A stretch of DNA of 64,000 nt from NCBI RefSeq assembly GCF_054482525.1, contig NZ_CM137006.1; one strand, written 5' to 3'. Each line of letters opens with the position of its first letter. Within the stretch, counting starts at the first letter, position 1. The notes beneath the pieces are model-generated. The model worked only from the letters and a program-made list of their open reading frames with translations, was not told the DNA's origin and searched no databases. Positions 4,154 to 58,648 of this stretch are shown here, in pieces. Position numbers and translations under genes: made by a program.

Positions 4154-5280
<1,127 letters not shown>

Positions 5281-5482
5281 TTAATTCGTAAAACGTGCTA
5301 CCGATCACATTAAGAAATCAGCGCTTATTTTTTCGCTCCCGGGCATTACGCAATGAGCAGCGAACTCAGGCATACATCAAGAATAGAGAGGGATTGCAGT
5401 TTGCAGCAATCCCTCTTTGCAGACCTTTAATCCGTTGACTATAGGCGCTAACATAGCGCCTCATTTTTTTGCGGGTGATGAT

Positions 5483-6430
5483 ATGCGTGTGTTACTGGCA
5501 CCGATGGAGGGTGTACTCGACTCTCTGGTGCGTGAATTGCTGACCGAAGTTAACGACTACGATCTGTGCATCACCGAGTTTGTCCGCGTGGTGGATCAAC
5601 TGCTGCCGGTAAAAGTCTTTCATCGCATTTGCCCTGAGCTACAAAATGCCAGCCGGACACCTTCCGGTACGCTGGTGCGCGTGCAGTTGTTAGGTCAGTT
5701 CCCACAATGGCTGGCAGAGAACGCCGCCCGTGCGGTGGAGTTAGGTTCCTGGGGCGTGGATCTCAATTGCGGCTGCCCGTCGAAAACGGTTAACGGTAGC
5801 GGCGGTGGGGCGACGTTACTCAAAGAGCCTGAACTCATCTATCAGGGTGCAAAAGCGATGCGTGAAGCTGTACCGGCGCATTTGCCCGTCAGCGTGAAAG
5901 TGCGTCTGGGCTGGGACAGCGGTGAGAAGAAATTTGAAATCGCCGATGCGGTTCAACAGGCTGGTGCTACAGAGCTGGTGGTGCATGGGCGGACGAAAGA
6001 GCAGGGTTACCGCGCGGAGCATATTGACTGGCAGGCGATTGGCGAGATTCGCCAGCGGCTGAATATTCCGGTGATTGCCAACGGTGAAATCTGGGACTGG
6101 CAGAGCGCGCAACAATGCATGGCGATCAGCGGATGCGACGCAGTGATGATTGGTCGCGGGGCGCTCAATATTCCCAACCTGAGCCGGGTGGTAAAATATA
6201 ACGAACCGCGAATGCCGTGGCCGGAGGTGGTTGCTTTGCTGCAAAAATATACTCGTCTGGAAAAGCAGGGCGATACCGGGTTATATCACGTTGCGCGGAT
6301 TAAACAGTGGTTGAGTTATTTGCGTAAAGAATACGATGAAGCAACGGAATTATTTCAGCATGTTCGGGTGTTGAATAATTCCCCTGATATTGCAAGGGCT
6401 ATTCAGGCAATGGATATCGAGAAACTCTAA
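5483..6430 (+). CDS. dusC: tRNA-dihydrouridine(16) synthase DusC
   Basis: Start placed at ATG 5483 ([11 protein letters not shown]...) giving 315 aa; recalled identity to DusC. Confidence 0.93.
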
Positions 6431-6444
6431 AAAACCATAGTGAT

Positions 6445-6760
6445 GTTTTTTGACAATGTGTTAGCTCTTTATCAATAGGCCGCACGGTTGTTTGGTGGCG
6501 TCAAAATCGCCGAGGCGTTCCCCGAAGGCCGGGGCAGCCCACATGGATGTGGGCTGAGGGCGCGTTTTACAGGGATGTTACCTCGCGCCCGACCCGGTAG
6601 CCGTAAGGGATAAGCCGAGGGCACCGCGCAGCGGCGATTTTGTTCGCCAGAGCCCGGGGGTGCAGGGGGCGGCGGCGATTGGTCGCCCCCTGCGCGCTCC
6701 TTGCGCCAGTGATTATATGAAGCAATGCACATGACAGGAGCGCAACAGGATGAGAGACTG
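6445..6760. repeat. GC-rich, palindrome-dense intergenic element of unknown class (not canonical REP)
   Basis: About 300 bp of high-GC sequence with several short hairpins (gcccacatggatgtgggc, ggcgattttgttcgcc, ggcgattggtcgcc) between dusC and yohP; the only ORF in it is Pro/Gly/Arg-rich and looks spurious. Confidence 0.4.
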
Positions 6761-6802
6761 AAATATTCTCGTTATTTTCGGATCTGATGACATTAATTAA
6801 TT

Positions 6803-6886
6803 TTAAAATATCATCTTAAATACGCCAGTCACCACCAGTAGCCCAATCAGGAAAATAATCAATACAGCCCAGAGTATAATTTTCAT
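6803..6886 (-). CDS. yohP: small membrane protein YohP (27 aa)
   Basis: Minus-strand translation MKIILWAVLIIFLIGLLVVTGVFKMIF; below the ORF-track length cut-off; recalled match to YohP. Confidence 0.8.
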   Translation of the reverse strand: MKIILWAVLIIFLIGLLVVTGVFKMIF

Positions 6887-7109
6887 TGGCGTTCCTTTAT
6901 TTGTGAGTGCTGAATAAGTATAGGAAAAAACGAAGCCCTTTGCCGTTATCCATAAACGATTAAGATAAATCGGAAGATATCATTCACTTAGTGTATATTT
7001 TTCTGGATATGTCGTTTTATTGCTACTGATGTATTGCCACGCGAAACTAAAAAATATATCGCAACACACGGTAATCTCCGCGCACCTTTTCTTACCTGAT
7101 TATTCCCCC

Positions 7110-8546
7110 ATGAATCGTGATTCTTTTTATCCAGCCATCGCCTGTTTTCCGCTGTTACTGATGCTGGCCGGGTGTGCGCCTATGCATGAAACCCGCCAGG
7201 CGTTAAGCCAGCAAACGCCCGCTTCACAAGTTGACACCGCATTACCCACGGCGCTGAAAAATGGTTGGCCAGACAGCCAATGGTGGCTGGAGTATCACGA
7301 TAATCAACTCACTTCCTTAATTAATAACGCACTACAGAACGCACCGGATATGCAGGTGGCTGAACAGCGCATTCAACTGGCTGAAGCACAGGCGAAGGCA
7401 GTTGCCACTCAGGATGGTCCGCAGATCGACTTTTCTGCGGATATGGAGCGGCAAAAAATGTCTGCAGAAGGGTTAATGGGGCCGTTTGCTCTGAACGATC
7501 CTGCCGCAGGTACGACCGGTCCGTGGTACACCAACGGTACTTTTGGCTTAACGGCGGGCTGGCATCTCGATATCTGGGGAAAGAATCGGGCGGAGGTAAC
7601 TGCTCGCCTGGGTACGGTTAAAGCACGGGCGGCGGAACGCGAGCAAACCCGCCAATTGCTGGCTGGCAGTGTAGCCCGCCTGTACTGGGAGTGGCAAACC
7701 CAGGCGGCGTTAAACACTGTCTTACAGCAAATCGAAAAAGAGCAGAACACCATTATCGCCACCGATCGCCAGCTATATCAGAACGGGATTACTTCTTCAG
7801 TTGAAGGTGTGGAAACCGATATTAATGCCAGCAAAACCCGGCAGCAGCTCGACGATGTCGCGGGGAAAATGAAAATTATTGAGGCACGGTTAAGCGCACT
7901 TACAAATCACCAGACAAAGGCATTGAAGCTTAATCCGGTCGCGTTGCCGAAAGTGGCAAGCCAGCTTCCTGATGAACTGGGGTACTCCTTACTGGCGCGG
8001 CGGGCAGATTTGCAGGCGGCGCACTGGTACGTTGAGTCATCGTTAAGCACTATTGATGCGGCAAAAGCGGCATTTTATCCTGACATCAACCTGATGGCCT
8101 TCCTGCAACAGGATGCGTTGCACTTAAGCGATCTGTTCCGTCATTCCGCGCAGCAAATGGGCGTTACGGCAGGCCTGACGCTACCCATTTTCGATAGTGG
8201 TCGTCTTAACGCCAACCTCGATATCGCAAAAGCCGAAAGCAACTTGTCTATCGCCAGCTACAACAAAGCGGTGGTTGAAGCGGTGAATGACGTGGCGCAG
8301 GCAGCCAGTCAGGTTCAGACACTGGCGGAGAAAAACCAGCATCAGGCGCAAATTGAGCGCGATGCCTTGCGTGTAGTAGGTCTTGCGCAGGCGCGCTTTA
8401 ACGCGGGCATCATTGCGGGTTCCCGCGTCAGCGAAGCCAGAATCCCCGCGCTGCGTGAGCGGGCCAATGGCCTGTTATTGCAAGGGCAGTGGCTGGATGC
8501 CTCCATTCAACTCACTGGTGCGTTGGGCGGGGGTTACAAACGTTGA
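7110..8546 (+). CDS. mdtQ: outer-membrane efflux lipoprotein (TolC/NodT family) MdtQ, intact
   Basis: Start placed at ATG 7110 (MNRDSFYPAIACFPLLLMLAGC, lipoprotein signal with lipobox Cys); uninterrupted frame, whereas K-12 carries a pseudogene. Confidence 0.85.
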   Translation: MNRDSFYPAIACFPLLLMLAGCAPMHETRQALSQQTPASQVDTALPTALKNGWPDSQWWLEYHDNQLTSLINNALQNAPDMQVAEQRIQLAEAQAKAVATQDGPQIDFSADMERQKMSAEGLMGPFALNDPAAGTTGPWYTNGTFGLTAGWHLDIWGKNRAEVTARLGTVKARAAEREQTRQLLAGSVARLYWEWQTQAALNTVLQQIEKEQNTIIATDRQLYQNGITSSVEGVETDINASKTRQQLDDVAGKMKIIEARLSALTNHQTKALKLNPVALPKVASQLPDELGYSLLARRADLQAAHWYVESSLSTIDAAKAAFYPDINLMAFLQQDALHLSDLFRHSAQQMGVTAGLTLPIFDSGRLNANLDIAKAESNLSIASYNKAVVEAVNDVAQAASQVQTLAEKNQHQAQIERDALRVVGLAQARFNAGIIAGSRVSEARIPALRERANGLLLQGQWLDASIQLTGALGGGYKR

Positions 8547-8598
8547 TGATATGCGCCTTCTATACTTAACGTTTATTCAGCGTTAAGTGGAGAACTCG

Positions 8599-9360
8599 AT
8601 GGCACAGGTCGCGATTATTACCGCCTCCGATTCGGGGATCGGCAAAGAGTGCGCGTTATTACTGGCGCAGCAGGGGTTTGATATTGGTATTACCTGGCAC
8701 TCTGATGAAGAAGGGGCAAAAGATACCGCGCGTGAGGTGGTTAGCCACGGCGTACGTGCGGAGATCGTGCAGCTGGATCTCGGCAATCTACCAGAAGGGG
8801 CACTGGCGCTGGAGAAACTCATTCAACGACTGGGGCGCATCGATGTGCTGGTGAATAATGCGGGTGCAATGACCAAAGCGCCGTTTCTTGATATGGCTTT
8901 CGATGAGTGGCGCAAGATTTTTACCGTTGATGTCGATGGTGCATTTTTATGCTCGCAAATTGCTGCCCGCCAGATGGTGAAGCAAGGGCAGGGCGGTCGC
9001 ATCATCAACATTACATCGGTACATGAACATACGCCGTTGCCGGATGCCAGCGCCTACACAGCCGCTAAACATGCGCTCGGTGGGTTAACCAAAACGATGG
9101 CGCTGGAGCTGGTCAGGCATAAGATTTTGGTGAACGCAGTTGCACCTGGGGCGATCGCCACGCCAATGAATGGCATGGATGACGGGGACGTGAAGCCCGA
9201 CGCGGAGCCTTCGATTCCCTTGCGGCGTTTTGGCGCAACGCATGAGATTGCCAGCCTGGTGGTGTGGCTTTGTTCGGAGGGCGCAAATTACACCACTGGG
9301 CAGTCGTTGATAGTGGATGGCGGCTTTATGCTGGCGAATCCGCAGTTCAACCCAGAATAG
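8599..9360 (+). CDS. yohF: SDR-family oxidoreductase YohF
   Basis: Start placed at MAQVAIITASDSGIGK (Rossmann TGxxxGIG motif); 253 aa. Confidence 0.9.
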   Translation: MAQVAIITASDSGIGKECALLLAQQGFDIGITWHSDEEGAKDTAREVVSHGVRAEIVQLDLGNLPEGALALEKLIQRLGRIDVLVNNAGAMTKAPFLDMAFDEWRKIFTVDVDGAFLCSQIAARQMVKQGQGGRIINITSVHEHTPLPDASAYTAAKHALGGLTKTMALELVRHKILVNAVAPGAIATPMNGMDDGDVKPDAEPSIPLRRFGATHEIASLVVWLCSEGANYTTGQSLIVDGGFMLANPQFNPE

Positions 9361-9389
9361 CGCAGTGAGGTGCGTGGTTATTTCATTGG

Positions 9390-9470
9390 GTTAGGCCAGA
9401 TAAGACACGCCAGCGTCGCATCAGGCATGGTGCACCGGATGTCGGATGCGGCGCGAACACCTTATCCAGG
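9390..9470. repeat. pair of inverted REP elements (BIME-like)
   Basis: aggccagataagacacgccagcgtcgcatcaggcat and caccggatgtcggatgcggcgcgaacaccttatcc between the convergent yohF and yohD. Confidence 0.6.
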
Positions 9471-9479
9471 GCAATGGTT

Positions 9480-10058
9480 TTACGCCTGATGATCCGGCTT
9501 TTTCTTCCCGCGCCGTTTCAGCCACCAGCGCACGCCTACCACCAGAACCACGACCAGAATCAACCAGACCCAGTGCTTCAAATGCTGGTCGAGATTGTGC
9601 AACCACGGTGCAATCACCTGACCACCAGCGTAACCGATAGCGGTAAAAATCAACGCCCAGGCAAATGCGCCGAGAATGTTCAGCGGCAGAAAGATTTTCG
9701 GCGGCAGCTGGCTGGCACCAATCAGCGTCGGGCCAATGACCCGAAAGCCATACATAAAACGCGTACCAATGACAAACAGATACGGATGGCGTTGGATAAG
9801 TTTCTGCGCCCGCTCAATTTTATCCTGATGCTTAGAGAAACGGCGTAATAGCTTGCCGCCAAACCGCCGCCCGCACAGATAAAGCACCTGGTCGCCAATC
9901 ATGCCGCCAAGCGCCACAGAAAGTACCACCAGCGGGAACTTTAATAGCCCCTGATGCGCCGCAACGCCTCCCAGCAAAGTCACGGTTTCACCTTCCGCCA
10001 GGCTACCGATCACCAGCGCGGCATAACCATATTGTGAGATGAGTGTATTGAGATCCAT
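9480..10058 (-). CDS. yohD: DedA-family inner-membrane protein YohD
   Basis: Start placed at MDLNTLISQYGYAAL (192 aa); the ORF-track start at 10145 is an upstream extension. Confidence 0.85.
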   Translation of the reverse strand: MDLNTLISQYGYAALVIGSLAEGETVTLLGGVAAHQGLLKFPLVVLSVALGGMIGDQVLYLCGRRFGGKLLRRFSKHQDKIERAQKLIQRHPYLFVIGTRFMYGFRVIGPTLIGASQLPPKIFLPLNILGAFAWALIFTAIGYAGGQVIAPWLHNLDQHLKHWVWLILVVVLVVGVRWWLKRRGKKKPDHQA

Positions 10059-10227
10059 AGGCCAGTCTGTCTCCCTTTGCTTGCCTGTAAGCATACACCC
10101 TGTGAATAGTTCACGCTGAAAAAGGACGTACATCAGACGGTGCAAATTACATGAGCGAACAAAAAATAATCACAAGCTGACTTATACTTGAACTGTCAGG
10201 TTCATGAACTCACAACAAGGGGGCGGT

Positions 10228-10815
10228 ATGAGCCATGTCTGGGGACTGTTTTCCCATCCCGATCGTGAAATGCAGGTGATTAATCGTGAAAACGAAACGA
10301 TTTCTCATCACTACACCCACCACGTTTTGCTGATGGCGGCGATTCCGGTGATTTGCGCCTTCATTGGCACTACACAGATTGGCTGGAATTTTGGCGATGG
10401 CACTATCCTGAAGTTATCCTGGTTTACCGGACTGGCGCTGGCTGTCTTGTTTTATGGCGTTATGCTGGCTGGGGTCGCGGTGATGGGGCGGGTCATCTGG
10501 TGGATGGCGCGCAATTATCCGCAGCGTCCGTCACTTGCGCACTGCATGGTCTTTGCGGGCTACGTTGCAACTCCGCTGTTTTTAAGCGGTCTGGTGGCGC
10601 TTTATCCGCTGGTCTGGTTGTGTGCGCTGGTCGGCACGGTGGCGCTGTTTTACACCGGCTACCTGCTTTATCTCGGTATTCCGAGCTTCCTGAATATCAA
10701 CAAAGAGGAAGGCCTTAGCTTCTCCAGTTCGACGCTGGCGATTGGCGTGCTGGTACTGGAAGTGCTGCTCGCCCTAACCGTTATACTATGGGGCTACGGT
10801 TATCGTTTGTTCTAG
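10228..10815 (+). CDS. yohC: Yip1-family inner-membrane protein YohC
   Basis: Start placed at MSHVWGLFSHPDRE; multi-pass membrane ORF. Confidence 0.85.
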   Translation: MSHVWGLFSHPDREMQVINRENETISHHYTHHVLLMAAIPVICAFIGTTQIGWNFGDGTILKLSWFTGLALAVLFYGVMLAGVAVMGRVIWWMARNYPQRPSLAHCMVFAGYVATPLFLSGLVALYPLVWLCALVGTVALFYTGYLLYLGIPSFLNINKEEGLSFSSSTLAIGVLVLEVLLALTVILWGYGYRLF

Positions 10816-31203: not shown

Positions 31204-31312
31204 ATATTCATCCCTGAAATGTATTAATGAAATAAACGATATTTTACGCGCAATAAATGTTTGGCGCATTAGTTGTTTGAGCGAAAAATATCTGGAAAGC
31301 AGATCACAGTAA

Positions 31313-31397
31313 ATAAAAAAACCTGCTGGTGAGGCAGGTTCTTTGATTTACTACTTTCAGGCCTAACACCACGGCCTGTGCAACATCGTGTTCCAAC
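31313..31397 (-). ncRNA. orzO: putative OrzO-1 antitoxin sRNA (boundaries inferred)
   Basis: Minus-strand promoter (-35 TTGCAA, 17-bp spacer, -10 TATAAT as revcomp of 31404-31409) and minus-strand terminator hairpin acctgc...gcaggt plus T-run (31313-31340); contains the complement of a 19-nt stretch that recurs in the zorO-1 5' UTR (31543-31561). Confidence 0.45.
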
Positions 31398-31426
31398 GAA
31401 CGAATTATAACCATCGGTGGACCCCG

Positions 31427-31454
31427 TTGCAATTAAGATAATGAGATTTATAAT
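31427..31454 (+). promoter_or_regulatory. putative sigma70 promoter of zorO-1 (TTGCAA-16 bp-TATAAT); palindromic -35 shared with the divergent orzO promoter
   Basis: -35 ttgcaa 31427-31432, -10 tataat 31449-31454; predicts a 5' UTR of about 174 nt. Confidence 0.5.
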
Positions 31455-31635
31455 CCTGACTGTTGGGACGTTGCGCCGGATCGAACCCATTTCAAGTCCT
31501 GGCTACCGGACGGGTGGTGCCGCAGGTAGTGCCCTGATCCGGAGTGCAACATCGTGGTCCAACATACGTAAACCAGTATCGACAGGCAGTGTAAGGGTAA
31601 GGTGCTGGTGTTGCGCTCCTTAATAAGGAGAGCGA

Positions 31636-31725
31636 ATGGACACGCTGACACAAAAGTTAACCGTGCTCATTGCTGTACTGGAGCTATTAGTGGCTCTGTT
31701 ACGGTTGATTGATTTGTTGAAGTAA
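31636..31725 (+). CDS. zorO: type I toxin ZorO-like small hydrophobic peptide (29 aa), copy 1
   Basis: ATG preceded by SD aaggag; translation MDTLTQKLTVLIAVLELLVALLRLIDLLK; assignment to ZorO of E. coli O157 is from memory; below the ORF-track cut-off. Confidence 0.65.
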   Translation: MDTLTQKLTVLIAVLELLVALLRLIDLLK

Positions 31726-31746
31726 TGGGCAAATTGAAACGCAACT

Positions 31747-31774
31747 AAGGGGGAAAACCGCTTCCCCCTTTAAT
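31747..31774 (+). terminator. rho-independent terminator downstream of zorO-1
   Basis: aagggggaaaaccgcttccccctttaat: GC stem followed by T-run. Confidence 0.7.
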
Positions 31775-31921
31775 AAAATGATTACATCTTCCATTAATTC
31801 ACCCGATAACTTTTTTCATATTTATAAATTCATCGATTTTATAATCAACGTACTATTTGGCCGGGATGTGAATAATCATGGTGGGCTATTGGCGAAAAAT
31901 ATCTGGAAAGTAGATCGTAGA

Positions 31922-32006
31922 AAATAAAAGAACCTGCTGGTGAGGCAGGTTCTTTTATTTACTACTTTGATGTTAAGTTACTGATAGTGCAACATGGCAT
32001 CTCAAC
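31922..32006 (-). ncRNA. orzO: putative OrzO-2 antitoxin sRNA (boundaries inferred)
   Basis: Same promoter/terminator architecture as copy 1; pairing segment differs from copy 1 and matches its own UTR target (32156-32174). Confidence 0.45.
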
Positions 32007-32244
32007 GAACGAATTATAACCACCGCTGGACCGTGTTGCAATTAAGATAATGAGATTTATAATCCTGACTGTTGGGAAGTTGCGCCGGATCGAACCCATT
32101 TCAAGTCCTGGCTACCGGACGGGTGGTGCCGCAGGTAGTGCTCTGATCCGGAGTGCAACATGGCGACTCAACATACGTAAACCAGTATCGACAGGCAGTG
32201 TAAGGGTAAGGTGCTGGTGTTGCGCTCCTTAATAAGGAGAGCGG

Positions 32245-32334
32245 ATGGACACGCTGACACAAAAGTTAACCGTGCTCATTGCCGTACTGGAGCTATTAGT
32301 GGCTCTGTTACGGTTGATTGATTTGTTGAAGTAA
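32245..32334 (+). CDS. zorO: type I toxin ZorO-like small hydrophobic peptide (29 aa), copy 2
   Basis: Identical 29-aa translation to copy 1; SD aaggag upstream. Confidence 0.65.
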   Translation: MDTLTQKLTVLIAVLELLVALLRLIDLLK

Positions 32335-32355
32335 TGGGCAAATTGAAACGCAACT

Positions 32356-32383
32356 AAGGGGGAAAACCGCTTCCCCCTTTAAT
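32356..32383 (+). terminator. rho-independent terminator downstream of zorO-2
   Basis: aagggggaaaaccgcttccccctttaat. Confidence 0.7.
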
Positions 32384-32455
32384 AAAGTAATATTCTATTA
32401 GTTGGTTGAATATATTCTGTAGTTTACGATTAAAAATTGCTATTACAGTTTCAGG

Positions 32456-32707
32456 TTATTCACCTCGTAATTTCCGCTCATCAATACACTCATCTCTTAT
32501 ATAAATCAACGCATCATTTATTAGCGGGTCAACATCCTCTCGATCACGTTGATGAAATGTTGGACGTAGCCGGAACCGTTCCAGTCGGTAAACGGAACCT
32601 GTAAATAATTCAGAGCATTTATGGATCTCAAGTCTGAAGGAAAACGGATCTTCAGGTACAGGGACCTCATAATTGTAAATAGCGACCAGCTCTTTTTGCA
32701 CGCTCAT
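32456..32707 (-). CDS. small hypothetical protein, possibly YehK-like
   Basis: 83-aa ORF directly downstream of yehI on the same strand; identity not confidently recalled. Confidence 0.45.
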   Translation of the reverse strand: MSVQKELVAIYNYEVPVPEDPFSFRLEIHKCSELFTGSVYRLERFRLRPTFHQRDREDVDPLINDALIYIRDECIDERKLRGE

Positions 32708-36409: not shown

Positions 36410-39400
36410 TTATTCAAACAGGGCTTCAATATCGTTAATTAGCTCGCTGGCGGTGATGGCATCGAGTACGGAGAGCTGCGCTTCCTGTGTTGAATTACTC
36501 CTCCAGCCATAGCTTTCTGCTTTGCCTTCCCATAGCCACAGCTTGCTTAAGATTTGCTCGGCACTCAGTTCGGCTGGTGACATACCCACCGCAAAACCTT
36601 CATCGATTTCCATGATTAACGACCAGCGGCCCAGAGGTTTGATCATCCAGCCGATCCAGCCTGCATCCAGCGGGGTGCCCTTTATCCAACCTTTATTCGC
36701 CAGTCCCATGACCCGACCGCTCGGGCATTTTCTGCCTGCCCAGCGGATCAATTCGCTGGCATTGCGCTCGGTTTCTGTCAGGGCGTAACTGTTACGGTCG
36801 AGCTGGCGAAACGGCGGTAGCAGTTCGTAGTCGGCAAAAAGCTGACCAAAGGCGGCAGCATCCGTGGGTGATATTTCCAGAACGTGAGGAATACCAACAG
36901 AGATATCGCCTTCCGGCGGGGTGAAAAGATCATCGTCAGCGGTGCTGTAGCTGTTATCTTCCGCCACGCGAAAGCAAGCCAGTAGCTCGTTTTCGGCGCT
37001 ATAAACGCCCCAAATCAGACGGCGGGTTAAGTGACGAACCAGCGGATGCTCAACCAGGAAGAGCTGAAAGTTTTCCGGCGACCAGCGGCGGCGCAGGCAC
37101 ATGGCGGATTCCAGCCTTGCTACCTGCTGGGCGGCGACGGTACGCGCATCTTTTTTCAGCAATTTGTAGCGGTTAACAGCATCGTTCGCCTGTGATTCAT
37201 CATCGCTTTTATTGGGTTTAGGTAAGTCTTTCAGGCGGCTGCCGGAAACATCGCGCACAAACGGTTTTAAGGTTTCATCAAAGCTGACGGTGAACTGCCG
37301 TGGGCCAAAATCCAGCAGCAGCGAACCGTTATCATCCAGACCGAGATCCGGTGCTAACCGGTCTTCAAGTTCCGCCACCGTGAGTTCGCGGCTCTCGGCA
37401 ATGTCGGCAATTTTTTCTTTCGCCCGCTCCTGTAAGGCTTTGAATTTCAGTTTCTGGGCGATGCCGTTAAGCTGCATCAGGGCGATATCGCTGCCGATAG
37501 CAGCGAGAATATCCAACCCAACGGTGGCACGTTTATGCTGAGATTCGCCAGGCCAGGCGCGGATTAATGGCGTCAGTTTGCGGGCGGCGTCATCGTTACC
37601 GAGAACGCCTAACGCAGTGAACGCCCAACTCTCTTTCGACGGCGCGCCAGCGGTCTGCCAGGCGGTAAACAGATCCCAGGCAAATTCAGCCAGTGAGTCG
37701 GCGGTACAGGCATCTTTCACCTGCAATAATCCCGGATACAGCGCCTCCTCCTGATGGAAGCGGAGCATTTCACCGAGGTGCTGGAGTGCGCTATCGGGCA
37801 GTGATTGGGCGCTTGCTTTTAATACCGGGCGGTTCCAGAGCGATGGCTGATAAAAGGCCGGAAGAGTGGGGATTTTTGTCGGGTGATTATCTAAGGGATC
37901 GAGCGCAAGCAGAGCGTTCACCGCGTCTGTTACTTCCGGCTGGTTATAACGCCGGGCGATTTCTTGCAGTAATGGCTGATGACCGTTTTCGGTAAGCATA
38001 CGCAAGGCAGCGCGGGCGTTATCCTGTGCTTCACCGGATTTGCCGAGCGCCGAAGGTAGCAGGCCGGTAATGGCGTGTTCCGGGTATTTCAGCAGCCAGG
38101 TGCGGGCGTCTTGTCGTAGGGTTTTGAGTTTGTTGAAGGCGCGGGCGATCAGTGGCGCTAATTCGATAGCCGCAAAATATTGTGCTACAGGCAGAGCTTC
38201 TTGTGGATAGCGTGAAAAGGAGTGAATAAAACCCTGTAACCCAGTGAGTTGCAGGTGCGTCATGACAAACTCGACACCGACGTGTGGCTCTTTACTGAGG
38301 ACATTCCACGCCTGCGCTGTCTTTTCGATAGGCAGGGTGGCTAACATGTAAAGCTGCCATTCCCGTTGATAGGAGTGCCAGAAGGTTTTAAATTCGCTGA
38401 TCAGCGCGGAATAATGTCCCCTTTGCCAGAGATCTATAGCAGCATCAGGCGCTTTCATATACTGGCCATTATTCCAGCGATTGAAACCCAGACGTGCCAG
38501 GTAGTTCTGAATATCCTCTTTTTGGCCGATGTCTATTTGATGTGCGTGCCAGCGATGCCTTGCATGAATCTCTTTTTCTGCCGTCTCGGTCAATGTGCAG
38601 CATGACTCCAACGATAATGGCGTTAAATCCAATACCGGTATAACAGATTTTTTCTTTTTCGAAAGCCAGGGCGGTGAGACTAATACGGCAGGCAGTAGAT
38701 CGGCGCAGGCATGGTTTGAGGGCTGTGTCAGTTGTTGCAGGCATGCTTTCAGCACTGCAACTGCGGGTGTTGAGAGCCAGGGAGTGACCTGTTCTGCTAG
38801 TGCCGGTTGCGAGATAAGCATCGTCATTAGCATAATGCGCCAACTATTCTCTTCTTTTTGCGCAAGAAGTTCCGCCAGTGCCGCCAGTGCCGTGTGTGGG
38901 AACGCAGCGCAAGCCTTAGTCATTCGTTCATGGCAGCGTTTAGTTTTGCCAGACACACGTATAAGTAGCATTAATGCTTGTGGGTGATTGATCTCTGCGA
39001 GAATACTTCCGCAAAGATCAGCATAAGCATAGGGGGCGAAGCGAGCGATTCCGGCAATCCCTTGCTCCTGCAAAACGGTGACATTCCAGATGCAACCATG
39101 GTAATAGTCATTAAAAAGGTCGTACGCGCAATAAGATTCCAGTGCTTTGAGCAAGGAAGATTCTTGTACAACAAGTTTCAGCCATTCAACAGTTTGGATA
39201 TTTTTCTGCTCCAGTAACCGTCGTGCGATTTCTTCTGCAATCTCCGGGCGTTCCGGTAGCATTAGCGCTACCATCGGTTGTTGAACGGGAGGAATATCAG
39301 GCAAAGCTGTAATGAATTTATCTACACAGCGTTGCCACAAAGTTTCTTCTGCTAGAGCCAAATGTTTACGCAGTCGAACGTCAAAGGGGGTAACACAATG

Positions 39401-40159
39401 TGCATGGTTTAATAATGGCTGAAAAGTAATGTGTATGCTTATTCTGTGATAAGTGCAATCGAACGAGATATATTGCATGGCAATAAACATATCCACGGCA
39501 AATTCTAGTCCGTAGACATAGACAATTTCATCCATGAGTTCAGGGCATTCGTCCCAGAATTTACGTGAAACCAGAACAACCTGTACAGCCAACGCAGCAG
39601 GAGAAAGTGGACCATTAGCGAGAGCTTCATTGATATTCTGCTGCCAGTTAGCAGAACATGCACTGAAATCGTATGTTGTTATTTTTCCTGATAGATTATG
39701 AATATCCTGACCTAAATTCATAAGGAGGCTGTCTTGTGGTTCGCTTACAGCATCCCCAGGAAAACGTCGGGAAGGTAAGGCCTCCTGAGACTTTTTCTCC
39801 GATAGATGGATAGTGGAATCATCTGTCAGCCACGGGCATGGTGTCTCAGCAGGTTCAGCAACCATACTTTGGTCAAATACGACTGTGGTTTCTGCCACGC
39901 CAGTTGTATCTACTTCGATCGTTTCTATTTTGATTGCGGGTTGGGATGGCGAAGATAATTCTTCCACATACCCCTTCTTCACCTTCTCCGCAATCAGCTT
40001 CAGTCCCGCTTTTTCCGCCGCTGCTGCATCCGCAAAGCTTTTTACCTGGTTTTGCCCTTTGGTGCCAACTTTTCCCCAACAGATATGCAACTCGTTTCCC
40101 TGTTGCTCCACCGCCCAGAATTTATGTGATTTTTCGTCCTGAAAGATAAAGTGCCTCAT
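36410..40159 (-). CDS. molR: WGR-domain / DUF4132 protein MolR (YehH), intact
   Basis: 1249-aa uninterrupted ORF; N-terminus MRHFIFQDEKSHKFWAVEQQGNELHICWGKVGTKG resembles a WGR domain; K-12 carries a split pseudogene. Confidence 0.8.
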   Translation of the reverse strand: MRHFIFQDEKSHKFWAVEQQGNELHICWGKVGTKGQNQVKSFADAAAAEKAGLKLIAEKVKKGYVEELSSPSQPAIKIETIEVDTTGVAETTVVFDQSMVAEPAETPCPWLTDDSTIHLSEKKSQEALPSRRFPGDAVSEPQDSLLMNLGQDIHNLSGKITTYDFSACSANWQQNINEALANGPLSPAALAVQVVLVSRKFWDECPELMDEIVYVYGLEFAVDMFIAMQYISFDCTYHRISIHITFQPLLNHAHCVTPFDVRLRKHLALAEETLWQRCVDKFITALPDIPPVQQPMVALMLPERPEIAEEIARRLLEQKNIQTVEWLKLVVQESSLLKALESYCAYDLFNDYYHGCIWNVTVLQEQGIAGIARFAPYAYADLCGSILAEINHPQALMLLIRVSGKTKRCHERMTKACAAFPHTALAALAELLAQKEENSWRIMLMTMLISQPALAEQVTPWLSTPAVAVLKACLQQLTQPSNHACADLLPAVLVSPPWLSKKKKSVIPVLDLTPLSLESCCTLTETAEKEIHARHRWHAHQIDIGQKEDIQNYLARLGFNRWNNGQYMKAPDAAIDLWQRGHYSALISEFKTFWHSYQREWQLYMLATLPIEKTAQAWNVLSKEPHVGVEFVMTHLQLTGLQGFIHSFSRYPQEALPVAQYFAAIELAPLIARAFNKLKTLRQDARTWLLKYPEHAITGLLPSALGKSGEAQDNARAALRMLTENGHQPLLQEIARRYNQPEVTDAVNALLALDPLDNHPTKIPTLPAFYQPSLWNRPVLKASAQSLPDSALQHLGEMLRFHQEEALYPGLLQVKDACTADSLAEFAWDLFTAWQTAGAPSKESWAFTALGVLGNDDAARKLTPLIRAWPGESQHKRATVGLDILAAIGSDIALMQLNGIAQKLKFKALQERAKEKIADIAESRELTVAELEDRLAPDLGLDDNGSLLLDFGPRQFTVSFDETLKPFVRDVSGSRLKDLPKPNKSDDESQANDAVNRYKLLKKDARTVAAQQVARLESAMCLRRRWSPENFQLFLVEHPLVRHLTRRLIWGVYSAENELLACFRVAEDNSYSTADDDLFTPPEGDISVGIPHVLEISPTDAAAFGQLFADYELLPPFRQLDRNSYALTETERNASELIRWAGRKCPSGRVMGLANKGWIKGTPLDAGWIGWMIKPLGRWSLIMEIDEGFAVGMSPAELSAEQILSKLWLWEGKAESYGWRSNSTQEAQLSVLDAITASELINDIEALFE

Positions 40160-51210: not shown

Positions 51211-51292
51211 CAACCAAACGACTCGGGGTGCCCTTCTGCGTGAAGGCTGAGAAATACCCGTATCACCTGATCTGGATAATGCCAGCGTAGGG
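51211..51292 (+). repeat. attL: left copy of the 82-bp direct repeat (thiM riboswitch aptamer segment)
   Basis: Identical to 59101-59182. Confidence 0.8.
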
Positions 51293-51375
51293 GGCCAAAA
51301 TAGTCTTGAAAATTATGTGGTTGTATCTCTTTTTGACCATAAATCATGCTGTTAAGGTACAAAAAGGGGTCGTTT

Positions 51376-52683
51376 ATGAGGTCAAGAACTCTCCCATACA
51401 CATTTCAGCGAAACGGTAATTACTATCTACAAATCCGGCTTTCGGATGGTCGGATATACAAAAAATCACTTTTTACTGACAGTTATCGCGAAGCATCGGC
51501 GTTGATGATTGGCCTTACTCCGCACATTCCTTTCGTTAAATCACTCGCTACTCCGTTGCCGCAATTTAATAAGTTTGTTTCAAACTTGATCGCTTCGTCA
51601 CGTAACGTAATGATTCCGTTGCCACTCCCTCAGCAATTGAACAATATTTCTAAAGAAGTTTTGCAGCTTCAACCACCAGCCAAACCGGAAAAGGTACTAA
51701 CACTTGCTGATGCGTGGGCTATGTACAAGGAGGAAAGAGGTCGAAATTGGACAAAATCGATCTCAATAGCAAATGAGCGTTATATGGAGGTATTGCTTGT
51801 TGTCTTGGGAAAAGAAACAGACGTAACGGCAATCACCAAACAAGATATTAAGCGAGTAATGGAAACTGTCGAAAACTTACCAAAGCGTGTAGTGCAACCG
51901 TATAGGTCAATGACTATTCAGCAACTAATCGAATGTGATGATGTGCTGCCAGAGGATTTAGTTGGTGCTGAGGCTGTACATAAGCACCTTAAAATCTACA
52001 AATCGTTATTCAAAACATTTCTGACTGAAAACAAAGATATTCTATCTAAGTCTCCGACTGATGGAATAGTAGCGGCACCATCCAAAGCTAGGTTTGGTGC
52101 ATACAGTGCAGCAGAAATGAAAAAATTTGTAGGATGGGCACTAAAGCAGCCTGATGGATGGCAGAAGTGGATCACTTTGTTGTTGGCGTACACAGGAGCC
52201 AGAAGAGGTGAGATTGCTAAACTGGAGAAGTCGCAGATCAAATTTGATGAAGATAGCCAGCGGCACTATCTTCTGATCGCGGAAAGAAGGCTGGGTAAAA
52301 CTGAGAATGCTACAAGACAGGTAGTGATTCATCCCAAACTGATTGAGTGGGGGTTTCTGGATTTTGTTAACCGCCAATGGAAAGAGAAAATCTTTTCGGA
52401 AGTCTCAGGTCGAAATATGTCAAAGATAGGTAAAGTTCTTTCAGATGTTCGTGATCAGCTTGATATTCCTTATCTTGATGATTATGGGCAGCGGCGCTTG
52501 GTGCATAGTTTCCGGCATACTATGATTTCTACTTGTTTAGCTGGTTGGGTGAGTAATTTGGCGCATCTGCAACAGGTGGTAGGTCATGAAAAGAGTGGAG
52601 TAGGGATTACCCAGCGTTATCTGCACACATTCCCACTTTCCACCGTTTGTTATGTGATCGATGGTCTTTGTTGGGAGACTTAG
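51376..52683 (+). CDS. int: tyrosine site-specific integrase
   Basis: ATG at 51376 preceded by SD aaaagggg; C-terminal catalytic block HSFRHTMISTCLAGW...GHEKSGVGITQRYLH (R, H-x-x-R, Y). Confidence 0.85.
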   Translation: MRSRTLPYTFQRNGNYYLQIRLSDGRIYKKSLFTDSYREASALMIGLTPHIPFVKSLATPLPQFNKFVSNLIASSRNVMIPLPLPQQLNNISKEVLQLQPPAKPEKVLTLADAWAMYKEERGRNWTKSISIANERYMEVLLVVLGKETDVTAITKQDIKRVMETVENLPKRVVQPYRSMTIQQLIECDDVLPEDLVGAEAVHKHLKIYKSLFKTFLTENKDILSKSPTDGIVAAPSKARFGAYSAAEMKKFVGWALKQPDGWQKWITLLLAYTGARRGEIAKLEKSQIKFDEDSQRHYLLIAERRLGKTENATRQVVIHPKLIEWGFLDFVNRQWKEKIFSEVSGRNMSKIGKVLSDVRDQLDIPYLDDYGQRRLVHSFRHTMISTCLAGWVSNLAHLQQVVGHEKSGVGITQRYLHTFPLSTVCYVIDGLCWET

Positions 52684-52811
52684 TTATTCGTGTATCCTTC
52701 TTAGTGTATAACCAGCTAATAATTTGTAGATTTTTATTGTCTGAGATCAAAAATTTTCACAACTAATTTACAATAATAACTTAAGATGAATTTAGGCTTA
52801 GTGAGTCTTCT

Positions 52812-53537
52812 ATGGTTAAAAATTTAGGCAAAAAATACAAGTATGGCGATCAACCGATAAGAGCTATTACCATACAGATAATTGCTAATCAGTTTGGTGG
52901 GGCTGCAACGGCTAAGCAGGTAGATGATTATCTTAGAAAGCTATTTCCATCTTATAAAGATAATACTTGGCTCAATTTAATTGCTAATACAGTTAATTGT
53001 AAGCGGAGCTACTGGAGTTTCAACAAAACTGCCCGACGAACTGATGATGTAACTCATCGGCATCATAAGTATGACCGATTGTTCAAGCGTGGAAATATTT
53101 TTGAAATCTATCAACCATCTGTGCACGGTATTTGGGAATTATACCAGGATTTAGAAGGGATGTGGCGTTATCGTCAAGTAAAATCGGTTTTCGAAGAAGC
53201 TGTTGAGACGGCTGCAAAATTATCTTCAGTGGAACGAAAGCAAATTTTAGCGACAGAAAGTAAAATCCCGGAACTAATCGAAGTAACAACACGAGTTTAT
53301 AAACGAAGCCCATATGTAGTTGCTGAAGTTCTTTTGAGAGCAAATGGAAAATGTCAATATTGTAAGCGAGATGCTCCTTTTCTAAAGGAAGATGGTACTC
53401 CATTTCTAGAAGTTCATCATATTGAGTGGCTTTCAAAGGGGGGGGAGGACTCTGTGGAAAATGCTATTGCATTATGTCCTAATTGCCATAGACAAGCCCA
53501 TTATGGCGATCTGACATTACTACCTGTTAATAAATAG
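52812..53537 (+). CDS. McrA-like HNH endonuclease (candidate type IV / modification-dependent restriction or defense nuclease)
   Basis: C-terminal CQYCKRDAPF...LEVHHIEWLSKGGEDSVENAIALCPNCHRQAHY closely resembles the recalled McrA HNH region; N-terminal about 190 aa unrecognised. Confidence 0.65.
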   Translation: MVKNLGKKYKYGDQPIRAITIQIIANQFGGAATAKQVDDYLRKLFPSYKDNTWLNLIANTVNCKRSYWSFNKTARRTDDVTHRHHKYDRLFKRGNIFEIYQPSVHGIWELYQDLEGMWRYRQVKSVFEEAVETAAKLSSVERKQILATESKIPELIEVTTRVYKRSPYVVAEVLLRANGKCQYCKRDAPFLKEDGTPFLEVHHIEWLSKGGEDSVENAIALCPNCHRQAHYGDLTLLPVNK

Positions 53538-53614
53538 GCTTGATGAAAGTTCTATTTCTATATTTTTCAATATACAAATTTCCCCAAAAACGGCGTGAAT
53601 ATCACGCCGATCAA

Positions 53615-53962
53615 TCATACTTCAGAACACATACTCAATGTGTAAACAGCCATCTCCCCATCGGGATTAGAAGGGCGTAATACAAATATCGGTATACTGC
53701 CATTGTCAATGTATGTGGCTGCAACCCCTCCGTCAGGTGTAGCATACATCTTTGCGATGCTTTTTTGACCTACAAAATCAAGTCTCCAAGTTTTACCGCC
53801 AAGATTTATGGTCATTTTTTTATCTTGTATATCAAAAGTTGAATCTACAGAAACTTTCTGACTTCCCGAGTCAATATGACCTTCCTGTATTGCTTTACAG
53901 GAAAAGGTTGTGGCGTGGCCCATCACTGGAATTAACAAAGCGGCAAATACTAGTTTTTTCAT
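53615..53962 (-). CDS. hypothetical secreted protein
   Basis: Start placed at MKKLVFAALLIPVMGHA (signal peptide); divergent from the XRE-family gene. Confidence 0.45.
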   Translation of the reverse strand: MKKLVFAALLIPVMGHATTFSCKAIQEGHIDSGSQKVSVDSTFDIQDKKMTINLGGKTWRLDFVGQKSIAKMYATPDGGVAATYIDNGSIPIFVLRPSNPDGEMAVYTLSMCSEV

Positions 53963-54072
53963 TTGTCTCCCTTGGTGTGTCAAATGGATGGTGATGCTAA
54001 TAATACATGATTGATTCAAAATGTCACGATTAGTGCGTGGTTAATTGGTGCGTCAAATTGCATCTTTGTGCC

Positions 54073-54537
54073 ATGCGAAAGAATCTGAGATACCTTTTTG
54101 GACAACGAGTAAAAGAGTTCCGTATAGCTATTGGCTTAAGCCAAGAGGCCTTTGCAGATCGGTGTGGTTTTGCACGTAGTTATATGAGTCGAATTGAGCG
54201 TGGTTGCTCTAATGCATCTCTTGATGCAATTGAGGTTCTGGCTGACGCTTTGCGTATTGAGCCTTGGCAGTTACTGGCTTCTGATTCAAGGAAACCTGAT
54301 GATCAGGAGGTACTTGTTCCTTATGCTGCAGATGGGTCGTGTTTTCATCCAGGATTGGCAAGTACTCGCGATGGTTCGTTTAGAGTAGGGGAAAAATCAG
54401 CCCAGAAACGTTTCAGTTCGTTCAATGAAGCTCTCGAATACCTTCGTGGAATGGAAACCGCGAAGTGGCGTAGGCCTAATGCTAGTGGTAATTGGGGAAT
54501 TGTATCTGCGGTTAAATGGGATCGACTGAATCAATAA
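54073..54537 (+). CDS. XRE-family helix-turn-helix transcriptional regulator with C-terminal extension
   Basis: N-terminal HTH (LRYLFGQRVKEFRIAIGLSQEAFADRCGFARSYMSRIERG); start could also be 54037. Confidence 0.6.
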   Translation: MRKNLRYLFGQRVKEFRIAIGLSQEAFADRCGFARSYMSRIERGCSNASLDAIEVLADALRIEPWQLLASDSRKPDDQEVLVPYAADGSCFHPGLASTRDGSFRVGEKSAQKRFSSFNEALEYLRGMETAKWRRPNASGNWGIVSAVKWDRLNQ

Positions 54538-54703
54538 GATATCAGTAATTTTCGGGCCACTCCACAAGGCAATAAGTGGCTTAGTGGTGATTATCGAAGG
54601 GGAATACAAGCGAGCACCTAGGCACCATTGCAAGAACCGCTCAACGCTGAGATCAGCAAGCCCCGATTTTTGCCGACCGTCCCTGTCAAATATCAAGGAG
54701 GCA

Positions 54704-55255
54704 TTACGCCACCTGCTCTTTCTTGATACGTTGCACCGTCTGCGTGCTGACACTGAAATCTTTTGCTACGCTCCGAATTGAGCCACCATTCGCGAGAGCG
54801 GCAGCAATTCCCGCTCGATCAATTGCTTTTCCATTACCACGTTTTGCTATACGTCCAGCGGCCTTGGCTGCGGCGATCCCTTCACGTTGACGCTCAAGCA
54901 TCATTTCACGTTCCATTTGTGCCACTGCTGCAAGAACTGTGAGCATCATATTCCCTGCGGGAGAGTTCTTTCCTGTCTTAAAGTCTTCTTTATGGAAATG
55001 CACAGACACGCCGCGCTTTGTTAATTGCTCTACAGTTGCCAGAAGGTCGGCTGTATTACGACAAAGGCGATCAATACTATGGACGTGTAACACGTCACCC
55101 TCCCGCACATAGTTCATCATTGCCTCAAACTGTGGGCGCTGAGTGTTCTTGCCTGACGCTTTATCTTCAAAGACTTTATCAAGAGTTACTCCTGCTAATT
55201 GACGGTCTGTGTTTTGTTGCACAGTCGATACCCTAATGTATCCAATATTAGCCAT
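54704..55255 (-). CDS. small serine recombinase (resolvase/invertase family)
   Basis: N-terminal catalytic motif GYIRVSTVQQ (Ser nucleophile) and C-terminal HTH; 183 aa. Confidence 0.8.
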   Translation of the reverse strand: MANIGYIRVSTVQQNTDRQLAGVTLDKVFEDKASGKNTQRPQFEAMMNYVREGDVLHVHSIDRLCRNTADLLATVEQLTKRGVSVHFHKEDFKTGKNSPAGNMMLTVLAAVAQMEREMMLERQREGIAAAKAAGRIAKRGNGKAIDRAGIAAALANGGSIRSVAKDFSVSTQTVQRIKKEQVA

Positions 55256-55741
55256 CTTCTTTTTTCTTCTGTATTGATTTGTGTGTAGTGATTATTGAAC
55301 GTGTTGATTAGGTGTGTAAAGTACTTTTTTCACTACGAAATTCGAAGTTTTTTAGTGTGGTGATTTAGCCTGCCTTATCACTACACTTCTTGCATGAGAA
55401 TCATGTAGTTACATTTTGGTAAAATTAGCAAGCTATTAAATTGTGTGTTTATTTTGAAAAAATAATTTTTGTTGCATTAAAGAAAACTTGTTCGACAAAT
55501 AATAGGTTGATTTTTGATCAATAATTTCTGATAGTGCTCTGTAAGCCGCATTACACAAGGCGCAGCGAAAGTGATGTAAAAGTGAAGAAAGCTAACATTG
55601 CACTTTTAAACTACTTTTCATTGAATTTTTTAGTATGGAATTACACAGGAATAAGTTAGGGATATTCTATGATTTACACAGGGAATATAGGGGGATTATG
55701 GTATTACACAGAGTGAGTGCTATGTGATGATTGGTAGTAAC

Positions 55742-55850
55742 GGTAGGTCACTGTGAACTAGGGGGGTAGGTCACTGTGAACTAGGGGGGTAGGTCACTGT
55801 GAGCTAGGGGGTAGGTCACTGTGAACTAGGGGGTAGGTCACTGTGAACTA
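55742..55850 (+). repeat. iteron array (5 direct repeats of about 22-24 bp), candidate replication origin
   Basis: ggtaggtcactgtgaactaggggg repeated five times head-to-tail, flanked by AT-rich DNA and further ttacacag / gtgtaatt motifs. Confidence 0.7.
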
Positions 55851-57106
55851 CAATAAGACTATAATAAGACTATTAATAAAACTATATTAGATTATTAATT
55901 AGATCATAATAATAATATTCTTTATATCTATATATATATGATCTTTTGCCTTCCGGCGTTAGCTTCACTCTCTGGCAAGCAGCCTTACTCCGCTACCTTT
56001 CGGGCTACGTTGGCTGGCCCGTTCCGCTCACACCGAAAGCAAAGCGTTACTTTCTTCGTGTAACTTCGTTGGCGGTAACGCCCACGAAGGAATACTATTG
56101 CGCTGTGCGCAGTAAGAGTAATCACCTAACCAATCATCTGATTGCTTACGTGTTAACTCTCTCTAACTCTTAATTACCCTCCTACATTTAATAACTCTCG
56201 TTATTCTCTGTAGTTGTGTAATTACTCGAAGAGAGAGCGGCTAAAGCTCAATTACACTCTGCTTTCCTCGTGTAATTTCACTAAGCCTCAATACAATTTC
56301 ACTTCCTACATTCTGTAGTCGTGTAATTGTTTTCGGTGGAAAAGCCAGAGGCGACACCGAAAGAGAATTCTGATCTTATTAATCTTATCTATCTTAGTTA
56401 TCTTACTTACTTTATCTACTTTATTATTAATAATAGCTTTATAAGCTCTCTGTGTAGCTCTCTGACGCAAGAAACAGAGTTCAGGAAGGGAATCACCTTA
56501 GAAAAGTGTTCTTTGCGTCATAATGTGTTTTATGAAGGATTCAGAGGTGTTTCATAACAGAGATGTATAGAGGATACTTTAGGTAATTAAAAATAAGGGG
56601 TCTAAATGCTTCTCTAACAGCATTAAGCAGGGTAGAGAATGGAAACCGCTTTGCCTACATATATAAACTCACTACAGGGCTTTACAGAGCGTTTTATAAA
56701 GTGACTCTCTGTTTTATATCTACCATCACCTTTTCATATACCTAACAAATACAAAATAAGCCCCTTAAATAAGCCTCTGGCGAGCTAAACAGCCATTACA
56801 TAAGAGAATGTATTGCTTTTATCAAAACCTCGTTAGAACGCGTTTTAGAGCGTTTTAGCGGATAATGAAGAATAGCACTACACAGGAGAGCACGAATTGC
56901 TAAGAAAAAATGTAACTACATGAAAAAGATCAGATTTTTTGTGAAAAGGTATTGACAAACGTCTCTTTCTGTGCAATAATAGGTATTAGAGGGACAGGAA
57001 TAGATTCTTATCCTCTAAATAATTAAACCAATGCACCGCACTTTGAAGCCCAAGGCTTGTAAGGTGTGTTTTTTCTTTTAACCAAATAGAATAAGGAGGC
57101 TAATTA

Positions 57107-57295
57107 ATGAAATATTTTACTCCACAGGATGTAGTAGAAGCCTGGAAACGTGGTGAGATCAACCGCTTTAAAGTAAGGATGTATAGAAACACCGCTCGCC
57201 GTTGTGGTTATCCAGAGCGTGAAAAATGTTTTGACGATGCACTAAAAATTATTGATGAACTGCGTAAAGCTGAGAAAGAAGCAGAGAAAAAATAA
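57107..57295 (+). CDS. hypothetical small protein (62 aa)
   Basis: ATG preceded by strong SD aaggagg; first of four co-directional genes each with a strong SD. Confidence 0.45.
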   Translation: MKYFTPQDVVEAWKRGEINRFKVRMYRNTARRCGYPEREKCFDDALKIIDELRKAEKEAEKK

Positions 57296-57317
57296 TAGAC
57301 AAGAGAAGGAGAAAACT

Positions 57318-57485
57318 ATGAGCGAAACTAAGAAACCAATTCCGCGCACTTACCTACACGTTGACCCTGAAATCTTCAAGGTTTTATTTGCTGAAGCCAA
57401 GAAAAGGCAAATTATGGTCAGTGATTTGATGTTAGAAATCATTACTGAAGCAGCAGAGAACATCAAACAAAAAAAGGGTAAGTGA
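57318..57485 (+). CDS. hypothetical small protein, possibly ribbon-helix-helix DNA-binding (56 aa)
   Basis: ATG preceded by SD aaggag; below the ORF-track cut-off from this start; RHH call is weak pattern-based inference. Confidence 0.4.
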   Translation: MSETKKPIPRTYLHVDPEIFKVLFAEAKKRQIMVSDLMLEIITEAAENIKQKKGK

Positions 57486-57536
57486 TCCTCATTCACTTTA
57501 GTAGCGCATTAAGCGTGATTTATAAGGAGATTTTTA

Positions 57537-58226
57537 ATGATTAATCAACTAACTTTTACAAAACACTATGACACGTTTGATAATGTATCAAAGATTTATT
57601 CTGATAAATTCCCTCAAGGAAAAGATTTAGATCTATTACATATTGTGCTTTATTTTCGATTCCTTAGTTATCAGGAAAACAACCTTAATTGTTATGAAAG
57701 TCACGAAACATTAGCTAAGATTTTTAAGTCTTCAGCGTCAACAATTAAACGTAAGATAAACGATCTTAAAGAGATGGGATTATTAGAAACATCCCCACAT
57801 CCTGATCCGTATATTTCATCTTTGATTTACAATGCTCTCCCTCTCACAGATGCACATATTACTCCCCCAGGAGAATCATCACTCTCTGATCTTTCTGAGG
57901 CAGAAGAAGCACAGGAACAACCTAAAGGCCATAAACAGCCTTCTTTTGATGTTCTTGATGATTGGGATACGCCTTTACCCTGGGAGACGGAAGAAACACC
58001 TGTTTCATCAAGTGAAAAAGTAGCTAATGATAATGAGGAGGATGTGTTAGAGAATTTTGCCTCTCTTATCATCCAGGAGAAACACACAAGAACAGGAGGA
58101 GCATCATTTATTGAGTTTGCAAATTCACTAGCTTGTAGATACGGGCTAAAACGACCAAATGGTATTGAGGCATATTTTTCTAAGAATTACCCAAATATAT
58201 ACGATGACTTTGATATTCCATTTTAA
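57537..58226 (+). CDS. putative winged-helix DNA-binding / replication-initiator-like protein
   Basis: 229-aa ORF with SD aaggag; N-terminal HTH-like segment and acidic C-terminus; lies downstream of the iteron array. Confidence 0.4.
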   Translation: MINQLTFTKHYDTFDNVSKIYSDKFPQGKDLDLLHIVLYFRFLSYQENNLNCYESHETLAKIFKSSASTIKRKINDLKEMGLLETSPHPDPYISSLIYNALPLTDAHITPPGESSLSDLSEAEEAQEQPKGHKQPSFDVLDDWDTPLPWETEETPVSSSEKVANDNEEDVLENFASLIIQEKHTRTGGASFIEFANSLACRYGLKRPNGIEAYFSKNYPNIYDDFDIPF

Positions 58227-58237
58227 TAAGGAGGGTT

Positions 58238-58483: not shown

Positions 58484-58648
58484 AAAATAGAATTCATCTA
58501 TTCCACGCTCTAATTCTATTTCTCTGTTTAATATAAAAGGAAAACATTATTATGGTAATAGCTATGTGGTGGTTGTTGTTTTTTATGCTCGTAGAAACAT
58601 ATGCAAGTAAGTCTGGAAAACAAAAATAATATATTGATGATTTGTTTT

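Follow-up and report, generated by a model that had tools for sequence, protein, structure and literature searches.

The mdtQ gene (also named yohG) found in the window, as we refer to the whole 64,000-nt stretch of contig NZ_CM137006.1 (RefSeq assembly GCF_054482525.1) that was analyzed, is an ordinary wild-type copy of a known core gene, whose conservation despite a pseudogene label was already known. Taken as a whole, the data are very probably best explained by a wild-type, functional-looking MdtQ that serves as an exit duct in the outer membrane (OM), with a partner pump encoded elsewhere in the genome, and by a recent loss of the gene in Escherichia coli K-12. The features within the gene on which this reading relies are the following, in window positions:

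7110-8546, plus strand: coding sequence of mdtQ (yohG), a NodT-family outer-membrane-factor (OMF) lipoprotein, from the open reading frame (ORF), HMM matches and annotation
7110-7175, plus strand: predicted lipoprotein signal peptide, residues 1-22, with the lipobox LAGC, from a regular expression and the translation
7257-7261, plus strand: run of five A (A5) in codons K50-N51, which is A4 in K-12, from alignment with mdtQ of strain ER2683
7314-7907, plus strand: first OEP repeat (residues 69-266), consisting of a helix, two beta-strands and a long helix, from the best stretch of Pfam PF02321

The ORF extends from ATG 7110 to the TGA at 8544-8546 and reads without interruption through 478 codons to the stop, 1437 nt in all. 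The initial annotation had described an uninterrupted frame of 478 codons opening with a lipoprotein signal peptide; the ORF and its translation showed the frame to be correct to the base, and the signal peptide was confirmed by the LAGC motif ending in Cys22. A longer in-frame alternative beginning at TTG 7020 appears in the mechanical ORF list. The RefSeq start of the 100%-identical gene of E. coli SCU-102 is ATG 7110, and a signal peptide is obtained from this start only, not from TTG 7020. The N-terminus reads MNRDSFYPAIACFPLLLMLAGC followed by APMH, with the lipobox formed by L19-A20-G21-C22 and Ala at position +2. The mature protein is predicted to begin with an acylated Cys22 (7173-7175), and Ala at +2 is, judging from the sequence, no inner-membrane retention signal. 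The lipobox Cys22 is invariant across 31 aligned relatives. Among 39 species representatives, the lipobox expression matched in 36 and the remaining three carry LPGC, while the Cys-Ala-Pro motif following the lipobox is kept in all 39.

We then considered the identity of the protein. The NCBIfam equivalog model for MdtQ (NF008524) matched with 1020.1 bits against a cutoff of 650, aligning residues 1-478 to profile positions 1-478 (E = 0). Given the length of the ORF and this match to a curated model over all 478 positions, a chance origin of the reading frame is implausible. Moreover, 7000-8600 has a 100% match in SCU-102, whose gene at this place carries the annotation mdtQ (WP_001078159.1). 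The orthologous position was confirmed by the order dusC ... mdtQ - [yohF] - yohD - yohC - pbpG, which also applies to Salmonella, Citrobacter, Buttiauxella and other species of Escherichia. The full-length equivalog match and the identity to the SCU-102 gene thus bear out the earlier naming as mdtQ/yohG, and nothing of substance distinguishes the window protein from E. coli MdtQ/YohG as represented, e.g., by WP_001078159.1 or the O157:H7 protein Q8X659. At a broader level, the model for NodT-type OMF lipoproteins (TIGR01845) gave 275 bits (cutoff 210), and Pfam OEP (PF02321) matched in two stretches totaling 108 bits, indicating two tandem OEP repeats, the second of which occupies the C-terminal half of the protein; the overall length is likewise within the roughly 450-500 residues expected of such OMFs.

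E. coli has four outer-membrane factors, namely TolC, CusC, MdtP and MdtQ. The window protein stays under the cutoffs of the MdtP, CusC, AdeK and TolC HMMs. Its closest named family is MdtP (YjcP), the OMF of the FUSC-type pump encoded by ytcA-mdtNOP and the second-best HMM match; with 353.1 bits against the NF007390 cutoff of 597, MdtQ is a paralogue and not a member of that family. K-12 MdtP shares 35% identity with MdtQ (E = 3e-86) and both are lipoprotein OMFs, but mdtQ lies without adjacent membrane-fusion protein (MFP) or FUSC genes in any orthologue. Membership in the TolC subfamily was likewise rejected (52.6 bits against the TIGR01844 cutoff of 225). TolC is only 12-13% identical to MdtQ and, in contrast to the prediction for MdtQ, is not lipidated.

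To examine the fold, an AlphaFold2 model was built from a 31-sequence alignment, with a mean pLDDT of 80.6 and a pTM of 0.74. It comprises four beta-strands (residues 104-116, 139-153, 325-336 and 348-357) and four long helices of 35-73 residues (158-224, 230-265, 359-431 and 437-471). Foldseek retrieved VceC, CusC, OprN, SilC, OprJ and OprM with E values around 1e-23 and TM scores of 0.72-0.88, and TolC more weakly (E around 1e-15); by sequence, the top PDB match was VceC (1yc9, E = 1.3e-39). MdtQ is thus modeled as an OMF protomer of the TolC/OprM type, with strands and long antiparallel helices suited to a channel-tunnel. VceC, CusC, OprM, OprN and SilC share this fold and the two-repeat OEP architecture, and CusC and OprM also share the N-terminal lipobox Cys. 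However, these proteins are only 20-25% identical to MdtQ and, unlike it, either are encoded together with known pumps or have been assigned to such pumps.

The difference between the window allele and that of K-12 comes down to one missing base. In MG1655, mdtQ (b2139) is flagged as a pseudogene, and the copy of the K-12 derivative ER2683 is flagged as 'frameshifted'. When the window gene and ER2683 mdtQ are aligned, a single gap appears, at gene position 148 (context CTGAAAAATGG), so the contrast with the K-12 pseudogene drawn in the initial annotation comes down to one missing A. It is this 1-bp deletion in the A-run (A4 versus A5) that makes the K-12 copy a pseudogene: its frame stops after approximately 69 residues, the remaining protein being readable in another frame. 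Besides the indel and the frame that it interrupts, 32 substitutions separate the window gene from the K-12 reference, of which about six are non-synonymous. When the base is restored, the K-12 allele differs from that of ATCC 8739 at a single synonymous site, which indicates that the K-12 lesion is very recent. An exact 65-mer centered on the deletion is present in 355 of 5403 E. coli genomes, and all 30 carriers among the matches listed are K-12-type laboratory strains (e.g., MG1655, C600, J53 and ER1709). Recoding at the A4 site was also considered and rejected, as CUG-AAA-AUG does not conform to the canonical slippery heptamer and the run does not have the length that transcriptional slippage needs.

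Elsewhere in the window, an intact gene for a 1249-residue DUF4132 protein lies at 36410-40159 on the minus strand, directly upstream of yehI, in a region that we take to be the split molR pseudogene in K-12. If so, this would be a second gene of the window that is intact here yet broken in K-12.

The distribution of the gene was surveyed in complete E. coli genomes, in which the mdtQ locus was found in 5420 of 5426 and at full length in 5390. An evenly spaced sample of 40 rows from the ranked genomes was used to define classes of mdtQ, and 12 annotations were fetched. The gene has the same length as the window copy in 35 rows and is of the K-12 type, 1 bp shorter, in three. The other two rows hold a copy truncated by IS1 in STEC379, where an IS1A insertion removes the 5' part, and a copy in which a +1 insertion lies five codons ahead of the stop, seen in 2017.11.01CC, which yields a 486-residue product with an altered C-terminus. 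All 12 non-K-12 genomes fetched from the 35 same-length rows have an intact, annotated mdtQ of 1437 nt. Intact mdtQ is therefore the species norm, and K-12, not the window strain, is the exception. Since intactness is the norm, and was already published as such (PMC11762307), the strain-specific importance for resistance implied by the initial annotation is overstated.

Conservation also extends to the level of sequence. Across 13 E. coli alleles (78 pairs), mean dS was 0.067 and mean dN 0.0053, and the resulting dN/dS of 0.08 indicates strong purifying selection within the species. A species-level scan recovered orthologues with 57-98% identity in Escherichia, Salmonella, Citrobacter and Buttiauxella, with an intact ORF of 477-482 residues in 37 of the 39 species representatives of these four genera; ORF and lipobox Cys are retained down to the 57% identity seen in Buttiauxella. 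The two representatives lacking an intact gene are C. koseri NCTC10786 (161 residues) and C. amalonaticus AUH_CA_2023_1 (370 residues). Recurrent truncation of mdtQ has also been described in some isolates of Salmonella Typhi and Paratyphi A (PMC9241588). Together, these lesions show recurrent, independent loss of an otherwise constrained gene, and the losses in K-12, STEC379, the two Citrobacter genomes and some Typhi and Paratyphi A isolates indicate that mdtQ is dispensable. These observations are in agreement with a 2025 review that lists mdtQ as core-conserved despite its pseudogene label (PMC11762307), and with descriptions of MdtQ as core-conserved, lipidated and independently encoded (PMC11762307; bioRxiv 10.1101/2025.03.19.644130).

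We then focused on the surroundings of the gene. The whole window is collinear with positions 2840184-2904183 of SCU-102 (reverse strand), with seven mismatches, and the local gene order is cdd, yohK, yohJ, dusC, a repeat, yohP (minus strand), mdtQ (plus), yohF (plus), yohD (minus), yohC, pbpG, dld and bglX. Three features flank mdtQ directly:

6803-6886, minus strand: yohP, a 27-residue small membrane protein and divergent upstream neighbor, mapped from the SCU-102 annotation
7027-7062, plus strand: non-coding block TGATGTATTGCCACGCGAAACTAAAAAATATATCGC, candidate promoter or operator of mdtQ, from spacer alignment
8599-9360, plus strand: yohF, an SDR-family oxidoreductase gene 52 nt downstream of mdtQ, from the SCU-102 annotation

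A Pfam YohP match occupies the equivalent place in Salmonella. On the other side, a terminator scan found no terminator-like site between mdtQ and yohF, and the two genes may be co-transcribed. The description of mdtQ as an orphan next to yohF holds in the window; the linkage itself is not conserved across species. In E. albertii, E. whittamii and most Citrobacter, mdtQ has no yohF beside it, and the candidacy of yohF as an obligate partner of mdtQ was therefore rejected.

In an alignment of six yohP-mdtQ spacers, 34 of the 36 columns of the block at 7027-7062 are invariant from E. coli to Salmonella, and the spacer further upstream is unalignable in the same six sequences. The block contains TTGCCA and TATCGC separated by a 17-nt spacer, and probably acts as the promoter or an operator of mdtQ. 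A consensus scan found no consensus sigma-70 promoter between yohP and mdtQ, matches in the region being no commoner than in shuffled sequence, and the mdtQ promoter is described in a review as lacking experimental confirmation (PMC11762307). Moreover, no recognizable Shine-Dalgarno sequence precedes ATG 7110 within 7080-7112 (CTGATTATTCCCCCATG), and a C-rich tract ahead of the start differs in length among Escherichia species, which together suggest a weak or regulated initiation of mdtQ translation. An Rfam search of 5000-10500 gave zero matches.

Some further features of the window deserve mention. A GC-rich, multi-copy repeat, lying between yohP and the dusC stop at 6430, occupies approximately 6474-6746. 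E. coli genomes contain the 370 nt of 6431-6800 at a median of three places, with a maximum of eight. The GC-rich repeat accounts for the odd proline-rich minus-strand ORFs at 6472-6732. Its position fits that of TRIP1c, a repeat described between yohI (dusC) and yohG (mdtQ) that mediates chromosomal rearrangements (PMC10888264). When the SCU-102 annotation is mapped onto the window, rcnR and thiM are separated by an islet of about 8 kb (approximately 51214-59200), with an annotated copy of a TPP riboswitch at either end (51214-51309 and 59104-59200). It holds a tyrosine integrase gene (51376-52683), an HNH endonuclease gene, a recombinase-family gene, genes for HTH proteins and several hypotheticals, and has the appearance of an integrative element that targeted and duplicated the thiM leader. 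According to the same annotation, a short pseudogene ('hypothetical protein, internal stop') is found at 32354-32707, followed by about 1.15 kb without annotated features (31204-32353) just before yehL.

With respect to the pump that MdtQ may serve, no MFP or transporter gene lies near mdtQ in the window, and the cognate MFP and inner-membrane transporter genes that typically accompany members of the family are missing at this locus. Similarly, tblastn searches with AaeX/A/B, YdhI/J/K, MdtN/O and YtcA returned nothing within 8 kb on either side of mdtQ in 39 orthologous loci. A further 7 kb upstream of the gene in Buttiauxella, analyzed with Pfam, encodes a bgl-type PTS operon, a LysR regulator and a methyltransferase, with no transporter partner. 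As no pump gene was found in any of the 39 loci, the orphan status of mdtQ is old and stable, and because none adjoins the gene in any orthologue examined, its partner must be encoded elsewhere. This status is no bar to OMF membership, since TolC is also encoded apart from its pumps.

An exhaustive search of representatives revealed a tight group of MdtQ orthologues, followed by a drop to 36-42% identity. The neighbors of six of the nearest cluster representatives in that identity range were inspected as informative contexts. A FUSC gene (PF04632) stands directly upstream of the MdtQ relative in five of the six, three of these five being complete Ytca-MFP(AaeA-like)-FUSC-OEP operons, and the sixth context is an MFS/EmrA-type cluster. 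The FUSC-OEP operons share the design of ytcA-mdtN-mdtO-mdtP of E. coli K-12. Because the nearest non-orthologous relatives mostly end operons of the type Ytca-MFP-FUSC-OMF, and because MdtP is the closest named family, a partner of this kind is favored; we infer that the most likely class would be a FUSC/PET-type pump, i.e., MdtNO, AaeXAB or YdhIJK.

Two FUSC-type pumps of E. coli, encoded by aaeX-aaeA-aaeB and ydhI-ydhJ-ydhK, have no OMF gene of their own, and the first of them appears in a 2021 review as 'AaeAB-?' (PMC8277102). MdtQ could be conceived as the missing OM duct of AaeXAB and/or YdhIJK, although we consider this specific pairing distinctly improbable. Such a pairing would have stayed hidden, given that nearly all E. 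coli efflux genetics made use of K-12, which is mdtQ-null. On the other hand, AaeAB function has been reported in E. coli laboratory strains, presumed to be mdtQ-null, and therefore MdtQ cannot be strictly required for it. Our literature search found no paper linking mdtQ with aaeB.

Based on what is established for the family, the MdtQ precursor would be exported through Sec and receive its lipid on Cys22, after which the Lol system would take it to the OM. Three protomers would then assemble into a 12-stranded beta-barrel continued by a long alpha-helical periplasmic tunnel. An MFP, the periplasmic adaptor of an inner-membrane transporter to which it is bound, would receive this tunnel at its hairpin tips, and the substrate would thus be given its exit duct. 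K-12 has recently lost the gene through the 1-bp deletion, and the window strain represents the normal state.

A possible variant of this reading, to which we give some tentative weight, is that MdtQ mainly exports an endogenous metabolite, or serves another envelope function, antibiotic phenotypes being incidental. The pairing of its relatives with FUSC/PET pumps would agree with such a role, as AaeAB, the characterized E. coli member of that class, has been called a 'metabolic relief valve' for p-hydroxybenzoate, and so would the core status of mdtQ in commensals, e.g., SCU-102 from a healthy student. However, this proposal overlaps with the explanation that we prefer, the physiological substrate being the sole difference between them.

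[quoted passage not shown] If measured in K-12, these effects would be puzzling and hard to reconcile with a frameshift at codon 50; polar effects on yohF or another strain background could possibly explain them. Taken at face value, the reported phenotypes would fit a role of MdtQ as a back-up or alternative duct for pumps whose usual exit is TolC (RND, EmrAB-type MFS or MacAB-type ABC systems), with a contribution to drug efflux confined to particular conditions or to a shortage of TolC. VceC, the best match among solved structures, is moreover the OMF of an MFS pump of the EmrAB type, and one near relative of MdtQ is found in a cluster of MFS, OEP and EmrA-type MFP genes. Nevertheless, the other five informative contexts are of the FUSC type and not MFS or RND, none of the 39 orthologous loci adjoins a pump that uses TolC, and loss of TolC alone is reported to give major efflux phenotypes in E. 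coli, so we regard a back-up role as unlikely. Finally, the idea that mdtQ is an intact yet silent and functionless relic, still undecayed in most lineages, could appeal to the missing Shine-Dalgarno and consensus promoter, to repeated independent losses without known cost and to a function described as not elucidated (PMC11762307), but it is very improbable, because a neutral relic would not show the low dN/dS within E. coli, the retention of ORF and lipobox Cys as far as Buttiauxella, and the nearly invariant 36-nt upstream block from Escherichia to Salmonella.

Altogether, the preferred explanation, an OM exit duct with a partner encoded elsewhere, has a bearing on how efflux in E. coli is viewed. 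The notion that TolC, CusC and MdtP are the sole working ducts of the species derives from a strain without MdtQ, and thus carries a K-12 reference bias. Furthermore, if it is true that MdtQ serves AaeAB or YdhIJK, wild and industrial strains other than K-12 could differ from K-12 in how well they tolerate aromatic acids.
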